Source of the DNA: Massalongia carnosa
Lineage: Eukaryota
Reading direction: 5' to 3'
Assembly: GCA_965645245.1 (NCBI GenBank)
Contig: OZ287083.1
Location: forward strand, 1,178,001 to 1,242,000
Length of the DNA: 64,000 nucleotides
Shown here: positions 49,482-64,000 of the stretch, in pieces
How positions within the stretch are numbered: position 1 is the first letter of the stretch
How the letters are laid out: the number at the start of each line of letters is the position of its first letter
Notes under the pieces: model-generated
Told to the model about the DNA's origin: nothing
The model's database searches: none
The model's input: the letters and a program-made list of their open reading frames with translations, nothing else
Program-made: the position numbers and the translations under genes

Positions 49482-52400
49482 TTATGTTCCCGAGCTTCCT
49501 CCCACTCGGGCTTTTCCGACCACAAGCTCCCACACGTCCCTTTCGAACACCGTGGTCCACAAGCGTTTCTCGAAAACGCCTTTCTCGACGCCCGTGGTCT
49601 GCACGATGGCGTCGGTCAAGTCCCAAGATCCCGTGAAGTCTTGCGTCTCGATGAGGGCATGCACTTTTTCGCTGTCGCTCGGCGTCTCCCGTGCTGCTGA
49701 TGGATGTCCCTTGCTGGAGCGAGAAAAGGGCCTCTCGAATGGTCCTATCTTCGCCAGTATGTTTCGTCCCCAGAGTCTTTTGCCGGATTCTCCACCTCCA
49801 TCGCTACCAGGTACACTTCCTCATACGCTCATGCTCGAAAAACCACCTGCGCCAGAATCTATGGCTTGAGGGCAAGCAGAAAACAGAGGCCTGGAGAAAC
49901 TTGCGCCAAACATACCGGCACCGTGCTGAGGGGGGTTACCTCCTGTCAAATGTCAGCTATACTGGCATTAACCAACATTTGGTCAACGGGCCCGTCACAT
50001 GCCCGTCACATGACATTGCCACCGCGGCACAGGTAAAAATTCTTCATCCCCCACATTCTTTCTTCCTTCGGAGACATCTCTTGATCTATCCCCTGGCGGC
50101 ATACTTAGCTAGAAAATCATCTATAGATCAATGCCATTCATTTCACCTCATCTGGTCAAGACGTAAATCATCTCAACTGATCATCAGGGCAAAAAGCCTC
50201 AGACCTCCCTTGAACGAAGAGCCAGCATCCGATAAGAACTGCGGTGCTTCACACAGCTACCATACGTCCGGGTGACTCAGTGGTACATTTATACTGTTAT
50301 CAACCTTACGCTCCTGCTGCAGAGAAGGTTGCTGAAACAAATTCTCCGAGGGCATATTTGGATTGCAGGAGATACTGGAATCTTTATACTTAAAAGCGTG
50401 CGCCTGACCAGCTGGCTTACCGCCATGCCTTCGGGGCCTGTTTGAATCAGCGAAGTTACTGGATGGTGTCGACAGATTCTCATACCATTCCTGCTCCACA
50501 GTTTCCTTACCGTCGTCCGAGACAGCCACAAAAGAGCACCATTTCCCACCAACCTGAAACTGCGTGCTCCGGCGAACAGCTTCCTGTTCCACGATTTCTT
50601 CAAAGCGGCTGAGAAACTAGTCTTTGATGAAAGCTCCGATCTCGTCGCGGGCTTCAGAGATCCATCTGCGATTTTCTTCGAGTTCTTAGATGGCCTTTCG
50701 GGCAGCTAGCTGATGGATCGTCGCACAAGGCTCGGAAATAATGTCCACTGGGATCTCTAGCTCCAACAGCCCATGCTCGGACGTGGCACGTAGGACCACT
50801 GATGTCGGTATCTCTTGTATACTCTCAGAGGCTAACAAAATATAGACCGCTGTCCTTGAAAAGGAGAAGAGTGTAGGGACGACAGATGGAGACTGGAGAA
50901 GCTTCGGGACCGCTATCTTTGGTAGATGCGCGTATGGATCTATTTCATCGTTTTCGGCGGAGAGCGGTGCTTCTGGTACATCGGGATTGGTGTCCATACT
51001 AAAAAATGACACGGGTCTCTGATAATTTTCCGTCAGAGGCTTGGCACCGTCGTCTATAACCAACACCATTAGGCTATCTGTCACCTTCTCAACCATTTCA
51101 TAGGTTTCCTCGTCAAAACTAGCGGTTCTGTACTAAATTTCCAGCCTGCATGCTTCAATATGTGGCGATAGAGCTCCTTTCAGCATGCGTACGACTTTTG
51201 TGTCGAGCTTCTCCCCATCGCCAACCGTCTGCGCAAATCCGTTCCCGGCACGGGCAATGTCCTCGACGAGGGCATGGGAAACCCCACTGCCAATTCCAAA
51301 AGTAAAGACCCGAAGACCGACCTTACTCGCACTGACCGCTTGATTTAGATAAGAAAAACCCCGGTTTGGTTCCAGATATCGCCATCGGTCAAAAGCATCA
51401 ACTCGCATGGAATGTCCGCATAGCGTCTCTCGATCGAAGCCTTCAAGGCTTGGAACGTTTTGGTCCCACCAGGGTCTACGGCGAAGTTTTCGACGTGTGC
51501 GACCGCTTCATCAAGGGATTCATGCTTGTAAGCTATACTTTCAGGCCACAAAAAGGACCATGAGGTATCAAATGAGCAAATAATTGAATTTGATCCCAAC
51601 CGGCAACGATTTCAAGAAAACTTTGAGAGCCGAAATGAGTGTGGGAATGTTAGCGTGCATACTGCCACTACGATCCACCACAAATATGATCTCCGGTTTG
51701 GCAGGAGGCAAAGAAAACCGGGGGACCAATGTGACCATCAAGGCACGCTGGTTGGGAATGCTTGGATGAGTCTCCAAAAGCACCTTTGGTGTTCCATTGT
51801 CCTTTACCGCTACAATTAGGACAAAGTCCTTGTCTAACTCGGCACTCCCAAGAGAGCGTGGCAGACGCTCGATGCATCGCCGGGTCGGAGGTGGGTGATG
51901 ATGAGATATTCCCCATTGCGACGGCGATTGGGTGGGTAGGCGATTGGATGCTCCGGATGAAGGACCCTTCAGCCATGCTTGCATCAACCGTGAATTCGAT
52001 ACCGCCTTGTTCCTAGGTGCGTTTGACGCTCTGGGCCAACATGCTTCCAGCCTTCTGGCCATAGCGCGGGGCTATCGTCGTCAGGAGGTTGAACTGGATC
52101 CCGTTCACCTCGGCGTCTTGCTTGAGCTCGCCGATGTAGGTGATTCCCACGTGAATGGCCTCGCCTGCTGGGATGTTGCCCAGGTTCGTCTGGAACAGGT
52201 CCGAGCTTTGCGGATGCTGCTCGGGCAGACCGGCCGTTTCGCCCCGCGCCAACGCGTCCTGATATGTCTTCCTCGCCTGGCTTTTCGCCTTGACGATGCC
52301 GTGCAGCGTCCGGGACCCGATCCGGCAGGAAAACCTCACCACGCTGACTCCCTCGTAGGGGGGGAACCGGTAGCGGCATCCGCCGATGCTCGCCTCCGAC

Positions 52401-52591
52401 GATTGGTTGGAGAACGTTTGCTTCAGCGTGGTTCTGGAAGTCGTGGACATGATGGTGGTTTGCGCCTGCAGCTTCACCTGGGGGAGATGGCGTTCCACTG
52501 TCCACCAGTCAACAGTACTGTCATAGCAGCAGCCGCTCATGTTTGCCATACCGAGCGAGAAGTCGAGAACGGGTCCTCCGTATGATGACAA
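49482..52591 (-). pseudogene. VIT plus von Willebrand A domain protein pseudogene
   Basis: VIT (LKQTFSN, YRFP, FQTNLGNIP), vWA (IIFVVDRSGSM, LLTDGDIW, FTFGIG), C-terminal QDFTGSW and WELVVGKAR, distributed over different frames with stops and frameshifts. Confidence 0.82.
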
Positions 52592-53383
52592 CTTCTAGTT
52601 CTAAGTTAATGATAACGGCAGGAGTTGAATGAGTTATGGAGAGTGGTAGCTATTGATGTATCTATAGAAATGTGTATTTTATGCGCATGTATACCTATTC
52701 CAGCTTGCCTATTCTATTCCGGACACCTTGTTGCCTAACCACCGATGGGCCCATCCCATCCCATCCATCACCCCCCACAAGGCTGAGTGAAGTTTGAGCG
52801 GTAACATACATATGAAACAGCGAGAGAGAGAGAGAGAACGGAACCTAGGTAGATAGGTAGATAACCGTATTTTCATCATCATTGGTCGATCGGTCGGTCG
52901 AACGATCAAACGATCAAACATTCCCCCTTGATTTTCTAAACAGCTTTTCGGAATCCCTCCGTTCTGTCCATCCGCCACTTCTCCCGCCAGAAAGATCCCA
53001 CCAGAGAGAAGCGTGCTGGGCTTGTTTTAACAGTTAGTCGAATCGACTGTATAAAAAGATCTGGAAAAGAGCATGCATGAAAATCCGCCGTGTGCGCGGT
53101 TCATCTTGCAAGTCTTGCATCACCGAAAAACGAAAGAGGGGGGTTGTTTCTTTTCATGATACCTCAAGGGACACAGCCACAGGTTTTTTTTTGGGATTTT
53201 GGTTTTTATATTAATCGGAGCGACAGTAAGACCATTTTGGATGAGACTAAAGTGGTCGCGAAAAAATGCTTCAAGTACATAGATGATAACTAGGGTGCCA
53301 ACGTAAAGACTCGCAGTGAATAGAACAGAGCGCATTTCCTGCAAATAAAAAATTCCTCCGAAGAAGATTTCAAGTCCTCCTAG

Positions 53384-54668
53384 TTAAGTCGACTCCAGCC
53401 TCGAGAGCCAATTGATAACCTGACGTGGAAACTCCCAGTTAGTCGCTTCCAACCCCGCCGTTCATGACAAGCGAAAATCATACATACCATCATGGCCTGC
53501 ACCAAAGCAACTTTCAGTCCGTAGTTGCTCCCGTCCCAACTAGACGCTTGCAGGGTGAGATTGTACATCCCAAGAGCGTCAATCTCCCGCGCGTGCGCTT
53601 CTTTCGTCATCTCTATCGTATAGTGCCAAATCGCGTTGTTGCCCTGGCTCAGTATTTGGCCCGGGGGTTTAAGATGCCCTGCTGCTGTGGGGCCAAGCCA
53701 GAGAAATGGAACGTTTCGAGTGGTGGAATCGGCCAAACCGATCCATTCGTTCATCGACGCGGTTGCGACAGGCCACGAAAGTGACGTTGCCAACGATAGA
53801 GAGTGTATAACAGGAACCGGCTTGTATGATTCGGGGTCTTTCGCCAGTAAGGAGGTGAAAGTGCTGCGATAGCTTTCTTGGGCGGGCGAGCTCTCAATAG
53901 GGAGGAACATGTGTGGAGTCCCTAAATGATTGTCAGAGCTAAGGTTTTGGTTTTGCAGCGCGAAGACACATACGGTCACAATAATAGGGACTCCGGTGCC
54001 CACTACCTCCGTCGTTGTCTCTGACCTCTTGGTGATTCATAATTGAGTACTTCAGGCATTCAGCCTTGATGATTTGATCATCACAGCGGCATCCTATACG
54101 CTCGCCCTCCTTCATCTCCCATTGCCTAAGGCCACCCATTGCAAAATTCTCTCGGAGGAGCATGTTAAATGCAGCATAGACATGTTGCAGCATATTATCG
54201 CCAACAAAAACTATCCCGTCGAATCGTTCAAGAATCATACAGATTTCCGGGGTTGAGTACCACCGGTACTGACATCCAACAGGAAAGTACGGCGTCTCAA
54301 AGCCATGGCGTCCGCCTCCGCTTAGGGCATCGAGAAGTTTTGCACGATTGTTACAATATGGGGATTTCCTTTGTCCATCCTCGTCGCGCAGTGATGGGGG
54401 AACGTATAGATCTGTTGACACAATGCCGCAGTCCTGGTGCCCTTCGAAGTGGCTGAAATAGCTTCAATACCCCCGTTAACAGAAAGCCTAAGAAATGACA
54501 TTCTGTAACTTACTCTCCAGCCGCATTATGAGAAAAGGGGAGTCTATCGGTTTGCATGTGTGACTTAGAGAAAATACCAGTCCACCACAAGAAAACGATG
54601 ATCGTGATAAATAGGAAAAGCACCGTGCGCCTAAAAGATCCACGGAACGACCTGCTACGAGCCATCAT
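53384..54668 (-). CDS. Conserved fungal type II membrane protein, possibly SGNH/PC-esterase-like
   Basis: N-terminal TM (TVLFLFITIIVFLWW), CQYRWYS...EIC, IVFVGDNM, SWDGSNYG. Three introns; final exon IINWLSRLEST*. Confidence 0.7.
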
Positions 54669-55075
54669 GTCTCGCGGAGCCTCAATGCCCTGAACATGTT
54701 GGGGAGTTTGAGGCGCACTTGCAAAGCGTGGGAATGGATAGGCCATGAGAAGGTAATGACAGGGCGTGATTGTGTAGCTGTTTCTGATTGCGTTGTGATA
54801 CCTATCGGTTGTGTTGAAGGCAGCAAACCAGGTATGGATACTTCCATGGGGGTAATGTCCATCAGGAACACTTTCTTCGCTTAAGTTTCTTCTTTAGGGC
54901 TACTAGAATCGACCGCTTAGCAATAGAAGGTAGGAACTCGAAAGAAGTTAAGGAAATGAGATGGGTGGATAGGTCAAGCCTATCTTTTAGAATAATTATC
55001 GAGAAGCAAAGGTAAGCACCCAGGTAAGCTAGTATATTGTTATGGGAAATTGCTGTACGCTATATAGCACGTTCA

Positions 55076-55376
55076 ATCTATGACCCTTATCGGTGCCGTT
55101 ACCTTCGCTTGCGCTGGGGGGGCTTTTAATTGGATGAATTGATTTGAATGCTTGAATTTGATTGGGCATGGGAACGACACAGGTCAGCCCGGGCAGGCCT
55201 AGGCACGTGACTCGGGGTCGGTGCTGAGGTGAGAACCTCATCTTCTAGGCCCGAGGCGTCTGCTGACGCTCAACGATCCGATAGATGATGCCCGACGGCA
55301 GTGCCCGACGGCGATGATCTAGATGGAGGTGCCCGGCGGCGCTCCGGATCGATGCCCTGGTTGACCTGTACGCCCA
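55076..55376 (-). repeat. Split direct repeat B2 (301 bp, identical to B1 at 55606-55906)
   Basis: Line-by-line comparison shows no mismatches (offset 530). Confidence 0.95.
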
Positions 55377-55430
55377 TCGCTCACTTAAGGTGGCTTCTAA
55401 CTAGCTATGAATCTCGGGTGGCCGAGGGTG

Positions 55431-55606
55431 GGGAAAAGCAGCAAGCACTGACAGCGAGGTAGGGGCACCGAGACAACGTGGGGTCGACGACGAGTCAGTG
55501 AGATGGATGAGGCCGAGTGAGAAGAAGTGGATGAGGAAAGAATTTTCAGAGGGTGATTCTTAATTTACTTTGACTCAGGGGCCTCACGTGACATAGAACC
55601 ATCTCA
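55431..55606 (-). repeat. Split direct repeat A2 (176 bp, identical to A1 at 59764-59939)
   Basis: Line-by-line comparison shows no mismatches (offset 4333). Confidence 0.95.
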
Positions 55607-55906
55607 TCTATGACCCTTATCGGTGCCGTTACCTTCGCTTGCGCTGGGGGGGCTTTTAATTGGATGAATTGATTTGAATGCTTGAATTTGATTGGGCATG
55701 GGAACGACACAGGTCAGCCCGGGCAGGCCTAGGCACGTGACTCGGGGTCGGTGCTGAGGTGAGAACCTCATCTTCTAGGCCCGAGGCGTCTGCTGACGCT
55801 CAACGATCCGATAGATGATGCCCGACGGCAGTGCCCGACGGCGATGATCTAGATGGAGGTGCCCGGCGGCGCTCCGGATCGATGCCCTGGTTGACCTGTA
55901 CGCCCA
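55606..55906 (-). repeat. Split direct repeat B1 (overlaps the YR stop codon)
   Basis: Identical to 55076-55376; abuts A2 directly. Confidence 0.95.
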
Positions 55907-57012
55907 ATGGAATGCCCAATTGAGTAGGGGTAGGAGTTTGTAGGATTCGTCTCGGCGACGACAGCACGTGGGACTGCTAGAGGGATGCCTTTTTGAAAAC
56001 TGAGGTTCAAATTGAATAGTGAGGCCTGGGACGTCTGAAAGTATAGCTGAAACGCGTTTGATGACCATCTTCCGAGTCTCTGAATACTCTCATCCAGCAT
56101 CCCGTGGTCGGCGGCGTGTTGTGCTGCTCCTTTTCTGAAGCTGTGTCCCGAGTATGCCGAGTCGTTGATGCCGACGGCTATCAGTCTCTTTTTCAGGGAT
56201 GCTATGACGGAGGCTCTGGTGAATGCGGTGCCGAGACGAAAAAGCGGGGATGTAGATGGTTGAGGATCATTTCTGAAAAGACGCCGTAGTGCTGTCACGG
56301 GGCAAGTGCTCTCATTGGTCGCTGCCAGCACTATCTGAACTCCTGAGTGATTTGTGTCTGTTTTGCTTCTTTTGAGACGTAATGTCGCGTATTGATCGTT
56401 CTCGGCGAATGAGATGTCACCTCGTGTAGGTTTCAATCTCTGAAAAGATGTCTTCTTACGATCAGCGACAGTGTAGGTGATTTCCCCGAGTCTGAGGAAC
56501 CCTGCCCATGCAACTTTGAATGTCGCGTCGATGTTGAGGTCTTCGGCCGAATGAGCGGGAATACTGGTGATTTTTGTCAGTAATTCTTTTGAAATGGGTA
56601 GGCGTCTTCTTTTTGTCTGAGAAAAGATCCTTTTTCCCCCTTTCAGCATCAATTGAAGTCTCGGCCCCTCGAATGGGGTGAGGCCGTATCCTCGGTCTAC
56701 ATGGTATGATCTGAGGCCGGCGAGGTAGCTCGCTGCCGTCTCTGGTTTTATCTTTCCCTGCTTGGGTGTGCCGCCCCCGTATAGTCGACCGGCTAGCCAT
56801 TCCTCGAGGGACTCGGTTGTTGCAGGCCACGACGTGCGTCCCGTCGTCGCGCAGAATGCCTCGTATGAGTCGATCGCCGTCCCGTACCCTTTTCTCGTGT
56901 CCGCCGAGTGTCCGTGCCAGACGAGACGTTTTACCAGGGCTGACCCTGGTGTGGAGGATAGGTAGGTGGAGGGAGGTTCATCGAATTGTATGGGTTCTGC
57001 CAATGAGGGCAA
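55849..57012 (-). CDS. Tyrosine recombinase of the retrotransposon (no ATG start; probably entered by splicing)
   Basis: N-terminal binding domain (TRKGY...YLAGLRSYH), AWAGFLRLGE, KRSKTD, CPV, GHSFRKGAA, LGRWSSNAFQLY. Overlaps the RT/RH ORF end by 82 nt. Confidence 0.93.
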   Translation of the reverse strand: MPSLAEPIQFDEPPSTYLSSTPGSALVKRLVWHGHSADTRKGYGTAIDSYEAFCATTGRTSWPATTESLEEWLAGRLYGGGTPKQGKIKPETAASYLAGLRSYHVDRGYGLTPFEGPRLQLMLKGGKRIFSQTKRRRLPISKELLTKITSIPAHSAEDLNIDATFKVAWAGFLRLGEITYTVADRKKTSFQRLKPTRGDISFAENDQYATLRLKRSKTDTNHSGVQIVLAATNESTCPVTALRRLFRNDPQPSTSPLFRLGTAFTRASVIASLKKRLIAVGINDSAYSGHSFRKGAAQHAADHGMLDESIQRLGRWSSNAFQLYFQTSQASLFNLNLSFQKGIPLAVPRAVVAETNPTNSYPYSIGHSIGRTGQPGHRSGAPPGTSI

Positions 57013-58634
57013 AAGTTAGCCAATCTTTCATCATCAAAACGTGACAGGGCATCTGCTAGTCCATTGGAAGTGCCACTGATCCATTGACAACGTAGTACGA
57101 TGTCCCACTTTGCAGCTATGGACAGTATTTCTCGTAGAGGCGCGTTGGCCGGTCCCTTGAGGGTTAGATTCGTGAATCCTGTGTATGCTGTGTTGCTGTC
57201 GGTAAAGACAAGGATCTGTCGATGTCGCCATGTCGGCGCCCATTTCTGAAGGATTAGAAGGATAGCTTCGACTTCTCGGACGTTTATGCTCGGTGATCCT
57301 TCCTGATTGAGGACTAGGACTCGGGCCCTACATGCGTTTTTTTGATTCACGAGCTCGTTGTCTTGTTGAAAATAGCCTCCGAGACCCGTGAGGCATGCAT
57401 CCGTATGCACCTTGATCGTGTCTCGTGTTGACGTCTCGAAGAAGACAATACCGTTGAAGTCCACTAGAAGTTTGTTCCACCAGATGAGATCCTGTCTGAC
57501 CCATGTGGGAATTCTTCTTTTGACCCGACGATGACTGCCCGAGGGAAATGAGGCTATAAAATTCCAGAATAATCGTAAGAAGACTCGGCCCAATTTGACT
57601 GCCTGTGCGCAGAAGCTTAGGAAGCCCGCTATTGACTGCATGTCGCCGAGGCTGATTGTCGTCTCGTTTAGTGCCTTTGTAGTGATGATTCTCGCTTTTT
57701 CCAGCTTGTCCGCTGGCAGACGAATAAGACTGTTGATGGTGTCGACCTCGAGTCCGAAGACTGTCGCTGTCGTTCCCTCGGCGTCTTTTGAGTCGTTTCT
57801 CGGGATGCCAAGAATGTCGGTGAGAATGTTGTAGGCTTTTGTTTCTTGGTGCAATCGTTCTGACGATGTCTCGGATGGGAAAATTGCAACGAAGTCGTCT
57901 AGATAGTGATGTAATCTCCATTGTAGAAAGGATTCCAAAATCCAATGAAAGCCTTCCGCAAAAAGATTGAAGATGAACGGGGCCGTCGACAGTCCGAACG
58001 AAAGGCATGTCTCGGTGTAGAATTCGTCATTCCATCCGAAACCCAGAAGCCATTGATGATGAGGTGCGACGGGAACGTTTCGAAAGGCGTCTTTGACGTC
58101 TCTTTTCACTATGACAGCACCTTTGCCCGCTGACAGAATCAATTGAATAATGTCGTCGAGTCTGGCGTATTGTAATTTGGATGCCTCTTCTGGAATGTTG
58201 TCGTTGACTGATGTTTGATTGGGATGAGACAGATGATGAATGCGTCGCCATCCTCCGTCATGTTTCGGGACCAAGCCGAGGGGGGAGGCCACAAATGGCT
58301 GACTCGGGGCGGCTATTCGTCTGACTCGGCCCTTCCTGAGGTCCTCTTGGAGCTTATTCTCGATCGTTTCCGGGTCCTCATTCGCTGATGTCAGATTTTT
58401 TTCGATCCGAAGGATGTCTGTGGGGCCTTCGTATCCGATTTGTACTCCGAAACGAAGGATCATGGGCAGATGGACTCGGAGGGGGCCCGGATACTCTTGA
58501 AGTAGAGTTGCCCATGCGGACGGTACGAGGGGAGATGGGCTGTCTTTCAAACGCTGACGAGATGCGTCTACGAGTTGAAACGAAGGGATTGTATTTGGTC
58601 TGATTGGTGCAGGTAAGCAGGGATGGGACGTCAT
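56931..58634 (-). CDS. Reverse transcriptase - RNase H (pol) of the retrotransposon
   Basis: SPLGLVPK...WRRIHHLS, DVKDAFR, LSFGLSTAPFIF, HYLDDF, FGLEVDT; RNase H TDAC...REVEA...TDS...ADALSR. Confidence 0.96.
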   Translation of the reverse strand: MTSHPCLPAPIRPNTIPSFQLVDASRQRLKDSPSPLVPSAWATLLQEYPGPLRVHLPMILRFGVQIGYEGPTDILRIEKNLTSANEDPETIENKLQEDLRKGRVRRIAAPSQPFVASPLGLVPKHDGGWRRIHHLSHPNQTSVNDNIPEEASKLQYARLDDIIQLILSAGKGAVIVKRDVKDAFRNVPVAPHHQWLLGFGWNDEFYTETCLSFGLSTAPFIFNLFAEGFHWILESFLQWRLHHYLDDFVAIFPSETSSERLHQETKAYNILTDILGIPRNDSKDAEGTTATVFGLEVDTINSLIRLPADKLEKARIITTKALNETTISLGDMQSIAGFLSFCAQAVKLGRVFLRLFWNFIASFPSGSHRRVKRRIPTWVRQDLIWWNKLLVDFNGIVFFETSTRDTIKVHTDACLTGLGGYFQQDNELVNQKNACRARVLVLNQEGSPSINVREVEAILLILQKWAPTWRHRQILVFTDSNTAYTGFTNLTLKGPANAPLREILSIAAKWDIVLRCQWISGTSNGLADALSRFDDERLANFCPHWQNPYNSMNLPPPTYPPHQGQPW

Positions 58635-58679
58635 GAATTCAGCTATTGAAGCTATTCTACTGCCTCCTGCACCAACCCC

Positions 58680-59693
58680 CTATTTCTTCGTTGGGCATGT
58701 CTTCTGGCCATGCCCAGCCGCGCCGCACGATTTACATTTGTGCTGTCGGTAGCACGACGGCCAGGTGCAGGTGCCGCTGTTGTACTTGTCGCAGATTTCC
58801 CCCGCTGCCTTCTCGGCCCTATCGGCCCTGTCTCCTCTCGGGGTCGGTCGCCGGGACGGCGGGGATCGTGAGCGGCGACGGCGTAGGACTGTGAGGGGGG
58901 TGCAGAATCGAGCTTGGAATTCGTCGGGCATTTTCCATTGGGATGCGTCGGATGGCTGAGACGCGATGATGTGAGTGTGGGTTTCGATGGCGAGGGGGAG
59001 GACTGCTTCCTGCCACTCGTACACCTTGGCCAGCGTGAGGATTTTTCCGTGGAATGCCGACATGGTGGCGTGAAGCTGTTGACTCGATTTCCCGAAAAGA
59101 CTGACCATGATCGAGGTGTAGTTGATGAAGCTCTCGGTCCAGACGTCATGAACTGTCTTTCCGAAATCTTTGTAGGTCCCGGATGCCTTTCTCAACCTCA
59201 AGGCGCCGTCTTCGATGCCGATGCGGTCCTGATCCTTGTAGGACTCGTATTGCATGCCGTGCATGTGTCGGAGGCGGGAGAGGTTGATGGCTTTGAATTT
59301 ATTTGAAAAGATCTTGATGATCTCGTCCTGTGGTAGGCCCGCGAAACGGGGTGCTATACTTCTTACTTCGAGAGGGATCTCACCTAGGTCCTCGTCGTCA
59401 TCGCCGACGACACGACTCGGCTTGCCAGCAGGAATGACGGCCGCTATTCGGGCGTCAGATTCTCGGCGCATGCAGTCGATTTCTAGCTGCATTTTTTCCA
59501 CCTCCTTCTCGGCGACCAATGCCTTGGACTCGGCAATTCTGGCCTCAGCCTCGGCCGCCTTCGCTTCTGCCTCGGCTTTCTTCTTTTGTAGGGCGAAGAT
59601 TTGATTGGACTGGGCCTGCGTCAATCCGACAATCTCCTGGGAGTCGGGGACTATGTCGTCCATCGGGGTGCTTTGGGAACGGGTGTTCGTCAT
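58680..59693 (-). CDS. Gag-like ORF1 (N-terminal coiled coil, C-terminal CCCH plus CCHC zinc fingers)
   Basis: ATG at 59693 (MTNTRSQ), KAEAEAKAAEAEARIAE coiled coil, CDKYNSGTCTWPSCYRQH then CKSCGAAGHGQKTC. Confidence 0.9.
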   Translation of the reverse strand: MTNTRSQSTPMDDIVPDSQEIVGLTQAQSNQIFALQKKKAEAEAKAAEAEARIAESKALVAEKEVEKMQLEIDCMRRESDARIAAVIPAGKPSRVVGDDDEDLGEIPLEVRSIAPRFAGLPQDEIIKIFSNKFKAINLSRLRHMHGMQYESYKDQDRIGIEDGALRLRKASGTYKDFGKTVHDVWTESFINYTSIMVSLFGKSSQQLHATMSAFHGKILTLAKVYEWQEAVLPLAIETHTHIIASQPSDASQWKMPDEFQARFCTPLTVLRRRRSRSPPSRRPTPRGDRADRAEKAAGEICDKYNSGTCTWPSCYRQHKCKSCGAAGHGQKTCPTKK

Positions 59694-59763
59694 TGGGAAA
59701 AAGCACCGACAGCGAGGTAGGGGCACCGAGGACAACGTGAGGTCGACGACGAGTCAGTGAGAT

Positions 59764-59939
59764 GGGAAAAGCAGCAAGCACTGACAGCGAGGTAGGGGCA
59801 CCGAGACAACGTGGGGTCGACGACGAGTCAGTGAGATGGATGAGGCCGAGTGAGAAGAAGTGGATGAGGAAAGAATTTTCAGAGGGTGATTCTTAATTTA
59901 CTTTGACTCAGGGGCCTCACGTGACATAGAACCATCTCA
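59764..59939 (-). repeat. Split direct repeat A1 (5' terminus of the element)
   Basis: Identical to 55431-55606. Confidence 0.95.
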
Positions 59940-61686
59940 CCATTTAAGGGGACCTCTATCAATTCCGTAGAAACCCACCATAGCGTGAATTCGTATCAGC
60001 AAGGTATTGAGAAACTGCAAAGTATATGAACTCACCTTCGTCGGAACGTATATACAAACTTGCTTATGCCATTCTGAAAACAGATTATCGAGACCATATA
60101 GCCCTCTTTGCTTGCAGGGAACCCCACCCAAGAATACACATCCTCAAGAAAAGAATGTATATTAGACATCACACCAAGTTTTGTTCATATTATGTCGACG
60201 CTGCCGACTCACAGCTTAAGCAAGTATTGTCATATCTTCCTTGCCTGCTAGGATTGCTTACATCTTATTTGTGTTTTCGGGGGTTTCTCATGGGCGATCT
60301 TTTGAGTTGCGTCCCAAGGTATGACTGGCGCACATTATCATTCAAAACAAAGACAAGTTGCGGCGCTTGCTAAGACCCTTACGAAAGGGGTCAACAGGTA
60401 AGATAAGGTAGAAGTAAAACAAAAGGCGTTGGAGAACTGGATATCTTGGACTATTCGATGTGATCCATTGGAATGAAAGCACTTCAGTCTGTAGACTCAA
60501 GAGAGGATGAGAATATCGTGAACTAGTTCTTCAATGTGATCCATGGAAAACGAAAACACTTCCAGCTTCAGAACTAACAGAGAGGCATTGTATTCTTAAT
60601 GAGGCAACAAACTGCCATATGAGAAGACTAGGTATTAACCCCGACAAAATAACCAGCTGTACCAACCTCTTTCCTTGAAACGTTTTTCTTCTGCAACTGG
60701 CAATCTTGATAAACCTCACGACTGACTACTCGTTCATATTTCCTGCCCTGAAGAGTTTCTTTTCTGGTTGGCTGTGATGTCAAACCCTTCACCGTCTAAT
60801 TTTCTCACTTCTGGAGTGTTGAGTAAAAATTTGAGCTTCACCTTTCACATACGACCACAGACTGAGGACATACAGGGTATCCCGTCCGCTCTGCCAACTG
60901 AAAACTCAGATCGATCGGTTAGTAATTGGTTGGGTGACCACCAGCGAATTCCGGTTGTTGTATGTTTTTGATTTTAAAAGATGAAATTGAAGCTGTTGGT
61001 AGATTTGTTGGGGCAGGATTGAGGAAGCGGTGGAGAGAGGGAGCTCGTATCAAATCACTTGGAACCCGATCGAGGTCGACCTGCATGCGGGCGTTCGGAG
61101 GATGCATTCTCTATGCGTCAAGTCATGCAAACTCAGGCGCGCAAGCTGCTGCGCACGCTCCAAGCCCGAATACTTAAACTTTCTACTAACCTCTAATTTA
61201 CCTGTTTGGTACCGTTGAAAATGCTATGGGTTGAGTGTTTAGAATTCTGAGTACTGAATACGAGAAGGATCCGATGTCCACCGGCGATAGCTTTTCGTTC
61301 CCCGAATGGCTGTGATAATGTAGTCATAATGGAGGATTACGATTCGACAATAAACGCCATTTACGATTTTGTTCCTGCAGCTAACTAACTAGTAGGCCCG
61401 CCCTCGGAAGCCATGCGGCCGAAGCTGGTCCGAGCGACGGATCCTTCCCCTGAAAATCTGCTTTTTGTTAATTCCCGATGAGAGAGCCGTACCGTTGACA
61501 TCGCTAATACTTCCGAATGTAGATCAATAGAGATCTATAGAGTAATCTGTTAGCATTGAAGCTAGGCAACAATGTTTTCCATATATGTGCCCAAGGGGAG
61601 ACCCGTTCTCCGGTTTGAGTGTGAACCAAAGGTTAAGCCAGACAATCGTCTTCGACTCGCCAGTGGCCCGCTTACCCAGCTCGAAA

Positions 61687-63102
61687 ATGTCCATGTCTGC
61701 GGAGGAATATGCTTACCAGATCGCTCACATTCATGACGATAGAAGACCAAAGATCGTGGCGGCAATCGTTGTGCTGATGCTGCTGTCGTCGATAGCGATG
61801 CTGTTGAGACTCGTTGTTCGATTCAGGACGAAGGCTCGGCTCCAAGCCGACGACTTCACGGTTTTTCTTGCTTATGTACGTATCGGGCACGAATGGCCGA
61901 GTGGTGTGCAAATATATTGAGCTATCATAGCTTCTGGCGTGGGGCTCTTTTACCTGTATTTACTACGGCAAGAATCCACCTTCCCGCTCGCCCCATAAGC
62001 CATACACGCTTATTCTTTTGCAGAAACCCGAAATGGATTGGGCAAGCACCTTGTGGCCGCGAGTCCAGAGCAATTAGAGGCATTTATTAAGGTCACTCTC
62101 CTGTTGCCAAGCAGAGCATGAAAGGTGGAGCTGACTTGTCGGTCCTCTATCTCCAGTACTTGCTCTTCTCGGGACCAGCATATGTTATAGGCGTGATGTT
62201 TACTCAGCTCTCATTTCTATTTCTCTATAAACGAGTTTTCACAACGCAGGTTGTGTGGTTTGCCAATACGCTCTATGTACTTGCCGCTCTCAGCTTCGCC
62301 GCTGGTATATCAATATTCTTTTCTGCGATATTACAGTGCACACCGTTCAAATATCGCTGGGACAGGACAATCACAGGACACTGCATTAATGTGAACGCTC
62401 TATGGATTGTCGACGATGCGTTGAATCTTATAATTGATGTTTGCATCGTGGTCGCTCCGATCCCACTTGTCTGGCATCTTCAGATGAGTTTAAGAACCAA
62501 GTGCGCTGTGGTTGGCATGTTCTTACTAGGAGGCTTGTCAGTGGCTCAACATAACCCGCCTATGCTAAAAATACGGACTGACTGAAAATGGGGAATAGCG
62601 TTGTAGTGATGAACCTAATCAGGCTTCCACAGCTAATCCACATCCCTATAGTAGATTTGACATGTCGGTTTCCCTTGTGCCTTTTCAGAAGCATTAGCTA
62701 ATATTGAATCCAGATAATTATGTTCCCGCAGCGGTCTACACTCATGCAGAACTTTGCTTAGGTATTGTCAGTGCCTGCTTGCCTTGTTTTAAGCCTCTCT
62801 TTCGAGAAATGGTTCTGGTCCCTACAGATAGAAGCAAGTCGTCGTTAGAGCCTCAACATCATTTTAAAGCGCCACTGGATCGATACACTACGCTACATGG
62901 ACAGGAACCATGGGCGAATGGGTCAAAAAGCATGCTCGTCCCAGTTCAAGAGAGGGTTACGTTGCCTCAAAGTCGTGATCATGGTATCGAAGGCAAGGCG
63001 ACCCTTGGAGTTCGCTCAGATCAGGATGTGGAGTTAGGTCTGTCTACGGATCGGCGTAACTCGATCAGCGGATGCGTAAACTCAGGATGTGAGACGATCT
63101 GA
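61687..63102 (+). CDS. Pth11-like (fungal rhodopsin-family) integral membrane protein, no CFEM domain seen
   Basis: LRLVVR...LQADD, GLGKH, LSFLFLYKRVF, QCTPF...WD...GHC, DVCIVVAPIPLVWHLQM, ELCLGIVSACLP. Several introns. Confidence 0.87.
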
Positions 63103-63391
63103 TGTAAGGGTTCTTTATACGAGAATTTCTCACATCGTAAGGTTCTTGGCTCGAGTTGCTTAGCTTTGATTATGTTGCTATAATTACTAAGGTTTTCAGC
63201 AGTTTATGATTTAACTGTAGGATCTAGAATCCTTTGCCGTGTGGGTGCATATGCAGCCAACAACCACCAGTTGACCTAGCTTCACAAATGAATGCATCTT
63301 ATGTTGCCAGCTTTTAGATTCATGCGGTGCTTGCTTGTAGCATTAGCGATACTCAAGCTCAGCAACAGGATATAAACCAGTCGATTTCGCC

Positions 63392-64000
63392 ATGCAACTG
63401 AGTCCCACGCTATCGCTAGGACTCTATTTGCTGATTGATCTCCTGGTGTCAAACTTGGTAGCTGCTATACTTAGCGTCAGTCAACTAGCATGTACAGTTT
63501 CATCATCTTCATTCTCGCCGTGGCAACCACCTACCTCGGCCAATATCAACTTAGGTCAATTTCACAGAGCTAGCAAAACTTTTCAGTTCGATATAGTCGC
63601 TGGTCTCTTCGAAAGCGACCTTCAAAAAAAGCAATTTTCAGCGGGCTTGGAAGAGTCACTGTCTTTGCAAGTTTTAATATCCCTATCTTGACCTTCACAC
63701 CAAGATTCGCTGCAGAACCTCCCTCAGCAGCTGATGCGGTTGCGCAGGCCAACTTTGGCAACTCCACCTTGACGAGCGAACTATTGCGATATTTGATCAT
63801 GAATGGAACTTATGATTCTACTTTTCTCAAAGGTGGTTGGAAGTTTTTGCCTATTTTCCTAAACGACCCCCGAACCTATCATCTCAGCCAGCCAGCAAAA
63901 ATCTAGGTGCTCTCTGATGACCAAAACTTTCTTCTAGAACGGGCGTGACTTTTATGCTATATTTTTATGCTTAAGTAAGCGCTCTGTTGCATTCCTGATT
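63392..64000 (+). CDS. 5' part of a putative secreted protein (possibly fasciclin-like), truncated by the window end
   Basis: TATAAA at ~63371, signal-peptide-like MQLSPTLSLGLYLLIDLLVSNLVAA, GT-AG introns, LLRYLIMNGTY segment. Confidence 0.4.

Follow-up and report, generated by a model that had tools for sequence, protein, structure and literature searches.

How is the polymerase of a retrotransposon made when its reading frame opens directly behind the stop codon of gag? The question is raised by a Ngaro-type tyrosine recombinase (YR) retrotransposon on the minus strand of a 64,000-nt stretch of Massalongia carnosa DNA (GenBank assembly GCA_965645245.1, contig OZ287083.1, positions 1,178,001 to 1,242,000 of the forward strand), which is referred to here as the window and numbered from its first letter. 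In this element, hereafter WIN, a gag-like open reading frame (ORF) ends with a single UAG and the frame for reverse transcriptase (RT) and RNase H continues in phase; a first-pass annotation of the window had proposed that this UAG is read through with the help of a stem-loop on its 3' side. Comparison with related elements makes gag-pol readthrough the likely expression strategy of WIN and the stem, with rather less assurance, its probable stimulator. We infer the occurrence of readthrough, its efficiency and the causal role of the stem from sequence. The junction comprises the following features:

58683..59693, minus strand: gag-like ORF1, 337 codons, ATG at 59693 (from the translation)
58695..58736, minus strand: CCHC zinc knuckle CKSCGAAGHGQKTC, C-x2-C-x4-H-x4-C (seen in the translation)
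58680..58682, minus strand: gag stop UAG in the context AAA-UAG-GGG, the proposed readthrough codon (from the sequence)
58660..58677, minus strand: 5' arm of the stem, +6 to +23, with the shared core GGUGCAGG at 58673-58666 (+10 to +17)
58621..58659, minus strand: 39-nt loop, which contains two small hairpins and, at 58634-58632, the first in-frame AUG (from the sequence and RNAfold)
58602..58620, minus strand: 3' arm of the stem, over the codons C-L-P-A-P-I, adjoining the R codon 58601-58599 on its 5' side
56934..58679, minus strand: pol ORF in the gag frame, RT and RNase H, 582 codons, stop at 56933-56931

Every coordinate of the first-pass annotation was found to be correct when the sequence was re-read. 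The C-terminus of gag consists of the zinc knuckle, the residues PTKK and the TAG at 58682-58680, after which pol follows in phase and stays open for 582 codons to 56934. The R codon beside the 3' arm belongs to the PAPxRPNT motif that is conserved among pol homologues (consensus of alignment A1, described below). RNAfold of 58700-58580 on the minus strand recovered the annotated stem, 58677-58660 with 58620-58602; of its 18 pairs two are G.U, a single A is bulged out, and +4/+5 could add another two G-C pairs. The first AUG of pol falls inside the loop, as had been described. The minimum free energy of this segment is -36.9 kcal/mol, compared to -26.4 +/- 3.2 kcal/mol for 200 dinucleotide shuffles (z -3.32), none of which is as stable (0/200). 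When +1 to +12 are kept single-stranded, as the length of the mRNA channel would require with the stop codon in the ribosomal A site, -20.0 kcal/mol remains, from +13; when +1 to +15 are blocked, -13.1 kcal/mol remains. A search of Rfam returned no match for 55000-60000 at E-values up to 1.

Other copies of the element carry the same stop. All or part of the element is present in 14 public sequencing runs, with no RNA run listed among them, and the first-pass annotation had named a sense codon in such copies as the sign of a private mutation; instead, the TAG and both stem arms are kept in contigs of three of the four runs compared over 58300-59100 (X7, X8 and X9), the fourth, X10, giving no contig there. 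These contigs are more than 99% identical to WIN over 58300-59100, with 2-4 differences in 801 nt that are confined to 58350, 58734, 58821 and 58851, and are too similar to WIN to inform on covariation. The cluster of pol proteins at 90% identity has 59 members, of which 40 were read and 15 listed; 4 of the 15 listed are 567-aa forms that start at the first AUG past the stop, in at least 11 places on megabase-scale contigs. Together, these records show a multi-copy element whose copies share the stop, with a divergence too low to reveal more.

More distant relatives were collected by a protein search with pol (ORF2), which gave 318 matches among 8000 scored candidates, 120 of them listed; among the matches listed, the named homologues are from Talaromyces, Penicillium and Aspergillus, which points to a fungal host as probable, and most others lie on short metagenome contigs. 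Alignment A1, which comprises 35 listed homologues and the query, was then used to scan a metagenome collection, and the best 79 loci of 338 confirmed stretches, with 36-53% pol identity, were retained (L numbers below). In each locus the pol frame was walked upstream to the first stop; the junction lies off the contig in 14/79 loci, leaving 65 visible junctions. Gag and pol are in one frame across exactly one stop in 44 of these 65, gag being recognized by a zinc knuckle in its last 45 residues (37/65) or by a same-frame ORF of at least 170 codons (7 loci). The variable gag/pol frame that the first-pass annotation had regarded as speaking against its proposal is thus absent from most relatives. 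These 44 loci and WIN, 45 in-frame elements in total, were clustered at 75% pol identity into 34 lineages, and a quick maximum-likelihood tree was calculated for 59 rows with a pol ORF of at least 350 aa.

The stop between gag and pol varies in identity among the 34 lineages (TGA in 16, TAG in 14, TAA in 3, TAA and TAG mixed in 1), and the types are interspersed on the tree. Swaps are found between close relatives, including TAA in L011 and TAG in L014, TAA in L002 and TAG in L003, TAG in L006 and TGA in L007, and also the pair L015/L013. At +4, directly behind the gag stop, 21 lineages have C, 11 have G, and A and T occur once each; behind the pol stop of the same elements (n=27), A is the commonest base with 17 cases, followed by G with 5, C with 4 and T with 1. 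CAA (8) or CTA (6) is the next codon after 14/34 gag stops versus 0/27 pol stops. The two codons make up 4.2% of pol codons, giving a binomial probability of 3.7e-11 that is an upper bound on significance since the lineages are related. AAA directly precedes the gag stop in 11/34 lineages. In yeast, readthrough is favoured by CA(A/G)N(U/C/G)A and by adenines immediately 5' of the stop; in mammals it is favoured by UGA-CUAG. Among the relatives, UAG-CAA-UUA is found in L006 and L036, UGA-CGG in L004 and L044, UGA-CUA in L012 and L051, and UGA-CUA-G in L063, L064 and L066. These contexts correspond to the readthrough motifs of Type I and Type II in the summary of Firth et al. (2011, PMC3159437). 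Judged by its sequence surroundings, the gag stop appears to behave as a selected stop with leaky contexts, unlike ordinary termination. In the UGA-CUA clade (L051, L063, L064 and L066), the spacer from the stop to the RPNT motif extends over 113-142 codons with the frame unbroken and contains tandem peptide repeats, e.g. PQHTAPTQ and RPAVSETV.

Across the family, the independent initiation of pol appears unlikely from the arrangement of its N-terminal part. The first conserved motif of pol is C-x-P-x-P-x-R-P-N-T (consensus of alignment A1), and in 18 of the 33 lineages with this motif no in-frame AUG occurs between the stop and the motif. The first methionine often lies 95-215 codons into the frame, as in L004 (codon 182), L005 (183), L007 (176), L023 (192), L028 (195) and L072 (199). 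Where close relatives differ in spacer length, they do so by whole codons, with 3 aa between L008 and L010 and 20 aa between L013 and L043. The conserved Phe of F-x-x-S-[HY]-x-C-x-P is located just upstream of AUG 58634 in WIN. Among the 120 listed database proteins, 53 present an RPNT-like motif in their first 400 residues, and many database pol proteins may start downstream of this motif.

The stem was compared among relatives by two pairing tests. In the first, which covered 27 of the 79 loci and WIN, the 30 nt after the stop were paired with the window at the motif codons, and all other 30-nt windows of the same element served as controls against the same 3' window. No control pairs at least as well in WIN (0/672), L023 (0/649), L032 (0/781), L008 (0/481), L010 (0/405) and L042 (0/201), and few do in L005 (1/585), L024 (1/664), L034 (2/530), L004 (2/464), L031 (3/375) and L007 (9/489). 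Loci of the CAA, CAG and CUG class are unremarkable in this test (L006 362/644, L018 319/418, L036 608/661, L013 661/790). In the stem-bearing loci the 3' arm ends a few nucleotides from the R codon, the loop measures about 20-110 nt and the 5' arm abuts the stop. The arm sequences themselves vary, with GGGGGGG:CCCCCCC in L008 and GGUGGCAGGAAG:CUUCUGUGCCACC in L034, and complementarity is kept despite different arm sequences in 11 further loci.

The second test paired the arm +4 to +33 with +37 to +260 and expressed the result as z against all other positions of the locus, with one representative per lineage. The median z is -1.99 for lineages with G at +4 (n=11) versus +0.52 for those with C (n=21; Mann-Whitney p=1.1e-5), and 7/11 lineages of the former group versus 0/21 of the latter fall within the lowest 5%. 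WIN stands at percentile 0.017, and at 0/202 by another control. Three lineages deviate: the stems of L020 and L072 are weak despite G at +4 (percentiles 0.41 and 0.14, respectively), and L035 reaches a percentile of 0.078 with CAA after the stop. The presence and absence of the stem alternate between sister groups (L024/L028, L008-10/L018, L035/L072): L024 has UGA-G with a stem versus UAG-CAA without one in L028, and L008-10 have a stem versus UAG-CAG without one in L018. From these comparisons, a strong stem appears to go with stop-G and not with stop-C contexts.

Stem covariation, which the first-pass annotation had suggested looking for, is seen with the relatives L023 and L031. MAFFT alignment A2 of WIN, L023 and L031 was left unused, as the upper 5' arms fell in different columns, and a pair table was made by a script anchored on the stop and the R codon. 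The three share an 8-bp core at +10 to +17, GGUG[C/U]AGG with CCUGCACC, the latter over the P-A-P codons. Above this core, two compensatory pairs distinguish WIN from L023/L031, G-C to C-G at j-19 and G-C to A-U at j-16; one-sided changes to G.U occur at j-17 in L023 and at j-9 in L031, and none of the shared 14 bp is broken. Because L023 and L031 are sisters, each double change is possibly a single event. Below the core, WIN pairs +4 to +9 locally, and in L023 the partners of +4 to +9 are the RPNT codons, beyond an internal loop of 10 nt. This bears on the spacer of only 2 nt to which the first-pass annotation had drawn attention: pairing in WIN does begin at +4/+6, while the pairs +4 to +9 are particular to WIN and the 8-bp core GGUGCAGG:CCUGCACC common to relatives begins at +10, corresponding to a 6-nt spacer. 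The common stem therefore starts near published spacers, which the accessible part of Firth et al. (2011, PMC3159437) gives as 6 nt for SEPN1, 7 nt for furoviruses and 8 nt for murine leukemia virus (MuLV).

The inference of programmed readthrough made in the first-pass annotation is hence supported by the single in-frame stop, the leaky contexts, the link of the stem to stop-G and the compensatory changes. Under the proposed mechanism, most ribosomes on the full-length RNA would stop at the gag UAG and yield Gag, and a minority would decode UAG via a near-cognate tRNA, stay in frame and produce a Gag-RT/RNase H fusion of about 920 residues. The resulting Gag:Pol ratio would be high, as in gammaretroviruses. 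The stimulator would be an extended stem-loop in which about 20 nt after the stop pair with the codons C-x-P-A-P-x just before RPNT. With the UAG in the A site, the lowest pairs would already be melted and an upper helix of about 11 bp would be positioned at the mRNA entrance. This entrance is where structures of this kind are thought to act.

Several observations weigh against this interpretation. Among the visible junctions 21/65, corresponding to a fifth to a third of relatives, are off-pattern. Gag is in another frame in at least 8 of the 15 off-pattern loci examined (L025, L026, L030, L046, L050, L068, L073 and L076); close relatives disagree on the gag frame (L073 vs L076, L022 vs L025), and these loci look decayed, which the disagreement among close relatives suggests and does not prove. 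In L022 and L070, gag shares the frame of pol and an extra stop intervenes, L079 has gag-TGA-CTA in frame with the pol start followed by a frameshift within pol, and L001, L029, L033 and L056 are ambiguous; the remaining six (L003, L039, L045, L057, L065 and L074) have extra stops, or the contig or high-scoring segment pair ends near the junction. In the annotated proteins P0088 and P0095 (51-55% pol identity), the frame runs uninterrupted from the gag knuckle to pol with Trp at the expected stop (...KRSWQSAES... and ...QKSWRLGAEG..., respectively). Both ORFs are cut short elsewhere; truncated or degraded, they look like decaying copies, and annotated proteins are biased towards copies that have lost the stop. 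The strand specificity put forward in the first-pass annotation stands in part: inspection shows both G.U pairs to be specific to the sense strand, and the antisense strand also folds to -36.9 kcal/mol. The antisense fold is ordinary for its composition (z -0.93, 34/200 shuffles as stable); because it equals the sense fold in absolute energy, the strand argument rests on the two G.U pairs and the argument from energy is weak. The lineage statistics are uncorrected for phylogeny, and the careful search for the tree is unfinished, which limits arguments based on lineages. Pairing from +4/+6 lies nearer to the stop than the 7-12-nt spacers of characterized elements. MuLV (Beier and Grimm Type III) has an 8-nt spacer and a compact H-type pseudoknot, whereas secondary-structure folding of WIN predicts a bulged stem of 18 bp that closes a loop of 39 nt and whose core begins at +10. 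WIN also has the in-frame AUG 58634 six codons before the conserved motif, which could start a near-complete pol. A further caution is provided by Tca2, a Ty1/copia element of Candida albicans that, as far as the available parts of Forbes et al. (2007, PMC2194720) describe it, is fungal and has gag and pol in frame across one stop with a predicted 3' structure; unlike WIN, it is a long terminal repeat (LTR) element with UGA. Its in-frame UGA and predicted pseudoknot gave no readthrough in Saccharomyces cerevisiae reporters, which serves as a warning against equating anatomy with function.

In one alternative, the UAG is an ordinary terminator and pol is made apart from Gag, starting at AUG 58634 via a subgenomic transcript, an internal promoter or reinitiation. 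Such an arrangement is improbable for WIN, even though its loop offers the in-frame AUG, 15/33 lineages have an AUG before the conserved motif and, according to Forbes et al. (2007, PMC2194720), the Tca2 junction has a minor promoter and its flanks gave no readthrough in S. cerevisiae. The other 18/33 lineages lack an AUG before the motif, and in WIN a start at the AUG would leave out the conserved Phe of F-x-x-S-[HY]-x-C-x-P, which is encoded upstream of it. Separate expression also gives no reason for the shared frame in 44/65 junctions, for spacer indels that keep the frame or for leaky contexts at gag stops but not at pol stops. By inspection, AUG 58634 has U at -3 and A at +4. This combination is a poor initiation context and likewise counts against a separate start. 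An even more remote explanation is that WIN is a dead copy, inactivated by a mutation that created the stop, and that its inverted repeat arose by chance. It could appeal to the Trp at the aligned position in two relatives, yet the three ORFs of WIN are intact, both pairs of repeats are 100% identical, and the stop recurs in further runs and copies, in keeping with the family, where a stop at this site is the norm; with the stem matched by 0/200 shuffles and 0/672 internal controls, this reading is already contradicted.

Of the alternatives, the one that leaves readthrough in place fares best, while still being unlikely: the context of the stop alone would set the level, and the stem would serve packaging, dimerization, the control of reverse transcription or mRNA stability. 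The link between stem and decoding is drawn from sequence comparison, the stem begins nearer to the stop than characterized stimulators, and L020 and L072 combine G at +4 with weak stems, all of which would suit such a role. On the other hand, the stem occurs where the known linear motifs are lacking and is missing where they occur (7/11 vs 0/21, including sister groups), whereas a packaging or priming signal should be independent of the base after the stop; moreover, the 5' arm always abuts the stop even though the loop varies from about 20 to 110 nt. Stimulated readthrough is retained as the preferred interpretation. Removal of the stop by splicing was considered and rejected by inspection: there is no GU within the 30 nt before the gag stop that could start such an intron, and no such signal is common to relatives. 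Termination-reinitiation was judged unlikely, since an AUG close to the stop is missing from most relatives, and an altered genetic code is unlikely, as all three stops are used at the site and the same stops end pol in ordinary contexts.

Among known systems, the gammaretrovirus MuLV (Beier and Grimm Type III) resembles WIN in having gag and pol in one frame across UAG-G with a 3' structure proposed as stimulator, and its outcome, a minority Gag-Pol fusion, is the one proposed for WIN, as far as the available excerpts on MuLV go. MuLV integrates by a DDE integrase and WIN would do so by a tyrosine recombinase, and WIN has no match to a protease domain. Structurally, the nearest analogue of the WIN stem would be the extended stem-loops of Firth et al. 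and not the MuLV pseudoknot. The accessible passages describe these for alphaviruses, tobra-, furo- and pecluviruses and the Drosophila genes headcase and kelch (Firth et al., 2011, PMC3159437). Like WIN, they feature a long-range stem, which measures 10-14 bp or more and is frequently interrupted by a bulge of 1 nt, and a large, poorly conserved loop; both arms are coding, compensatory changes are found, and the stem is absent with UAG-CAA-UYA contexts. Their spacers of 7-12 nt and loops of about 100-270 nt differ from the 0-6-nt spacer and 39-nt loop of WIN (same source). A split comparable to that among the WIN relatives is described there between furoviruses, with UGA-CGG and a stem, and pomoviruses, with UAG-CAA-UYA and no stem (Firth et al., 2011, PMC3159437, available part). 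In the WIN family, the 3' arm keeps to the codons of a conserved protein motif, whereas the sequence of the 5' arm and the register of pairing drift between lineages. The tobamovirus-type UAG-CAA-UUA and the UGA-CGG/UGA-CUA contexts (Types I and II) occur in relatives and not in WIN, which has UAG-GGG and would rely on structure rather than on a linear motif.

Ngaro elements as described in the available passages of Muszewska et al. (2013, PMC3783388) share with WIN the RT/RNase H, the lack of a methyltransferase and the split direct repeats, and have a YR, which is putative in WIN; in those passages, 'stop codon', 'readthrough' and 'read-through' have 0 occurrences. No report of readthrough in YR retrotransposons was found in the literature searched, a search that Goodwin and Poulter (2004) and Poulter and Butler (2015) fall outside. 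The few papers retrieved that name Ngaro together with readthrough concern transcripts or other subjects. The proposed mechanism, programmed readthrough with a 3' structure, is known in kind, and the element class seems new. Also seemingly new are a single retroelement family with all recognized classes of readthrough signal at a homologous site, and a helix anchored on a conserved protein motif. The expression of Pol and recombinase from a gag-first RNA in Ngaro and DIRS elements is essentially uncharacterized, and, if confirmed, the present case would extend retrovirus-style Gag:Pol control to a retroelement order with a quite different integration enzyme. Homologous junctions with either a linear motif or stop-G and a helix would offer a natural comparison in which the interchange of sequence and structure in eukaryotic, here fungal, termination could be tested directly. 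For annotation, gene callers split or mis-splice such elements, and recognition of the recoding site would improve that of transposable elements; cases in point are pol proteins whose start lies behind the conserved motif and gene models from which the stop is missing. In P0099 and P0103 (Talaromyces stipitatus and Penicillium subrubescens), the models fuse N-terminal gag sequence directly to the region of the pol motif and omit the knuckle and the stop, and these joins are probably prediction artefacts caused by the in-frame stop.

Outside the gag-pol junction, the element has the following parts:

55076..59939, minus strand: whole Ngaro-type YR retrotransposon, 4864 bp, with split direct repeats A1...B1-A2-B2 and ORFs for gag, RT/RNase H and YR
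59764..59939, minus strand: repeat A1, 176 nt, 100% identical to 55431-55606
55852..57015, minus strand: putative tyrosine recombinase ORF (ORF3) in the -1 frame, with an 85-nt overlap with the pol end and its first Met at residue 122-123
55606..55905, minus strand: repeat B1, 300 nt, 100% identical to 55076-55375, overlapping the 3' end of the YR ORF
55431..55606, minus strand: repeat A2, 176 nt, 100% identical to repeat A1
55076..55375, minus strand: repeat B2, 300 nt, 100% identical to repeat B1

Repeats A2 and B2 are set apart by a 55-nt unique spacer (55376-55430), and the last 19 codons of the YR ORF contain the start of repeat B1 (55849-55905). In the 582-aa pol ORF, Pfam matches are RVT_1 (2.2e-12) and RT_RNaseH (1.6e-4, sub-threshold); no further family was matched in it, including no DIRS-type methyltransferase domain and no protease domain. 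No Pfam family matches the gag-like ORF1, which is called gag because of its position and CCHC knuckle. The YR ORF matches Phage_integrase at E=0.0054 and 17 bits, under the cut-off of 27.1, and H-x-x-R (HSFRKG) and a later Tyr (FQLYF) are visible in its translation. No inverted repeats of at least 40 nt occur in 52000-64000. The combination of split direct repeats, RT/RNase H and a putative tyrosine recombinase without a methyltransferase identifies the element, by its sequence features, as of Ngaro type. As the repeats are identical and the ORFs intact, a recent insertion of a young, recently active element is suggested; blastn and tblastn searches against the rest of the window returned no second copy.

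The recombinase poses a similar problem one gene further on. The YR ORF overlaps the pol end in the -1 frame in 20/24 lineages, is in the same frame in 2 and in the +1 frame in 2, and lies off the contig in 3 more. The -1 overlap is seen in WIN (56931-57015), L023, L031, L032, L034, L005, L002, L035, L028, L055, L063, L075 and others. The first Met of YR is usually deep inside the ORF, at residue 299 in L023, 166 in L034 and 181 in L028. An XXXYYYZ pattern, counted irrespective of its frame, occurs in the pol-YR overlap of only 5/24 lineages. This arrangement suggests a second recoding or splicing step for YR, and an overlap of the YR ORF and a frameshift in Ngaro elements are mentioned in the available passages of Muszewska et al. 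(2013, PMC3783388). It is tentatively hypothesized, though the balance tilts against it, that the fungal Ngaro clade uses two successive recodings, gag-pol readthrough with switching signal classes followed by a -1 shift for YR. The signals would switch among UAG-CAA-UUA, UGA-CGG/CUA and stop-G with a long-range helix, and the helix would be kept by a 5' arm that tracks the PxPxRPNT codons. If true, this clade would represent the first recoding system described in YR retrotransposons and would provide, in a single gene family, a natural series of readthrough signals that can replace one another.

Some of the metagenome contigs are themselves about as long as one element. The contig of L050 measures 4864 bp, the same length as the WIN element, and many metagenome contigs span 3-5 kb, approximately one element. 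In L013, pol matches are located at both contig ends (83-1732 and from about 4598). Contigs of one element length would fit tandem or circular forms, or repeats that were assembled alone.

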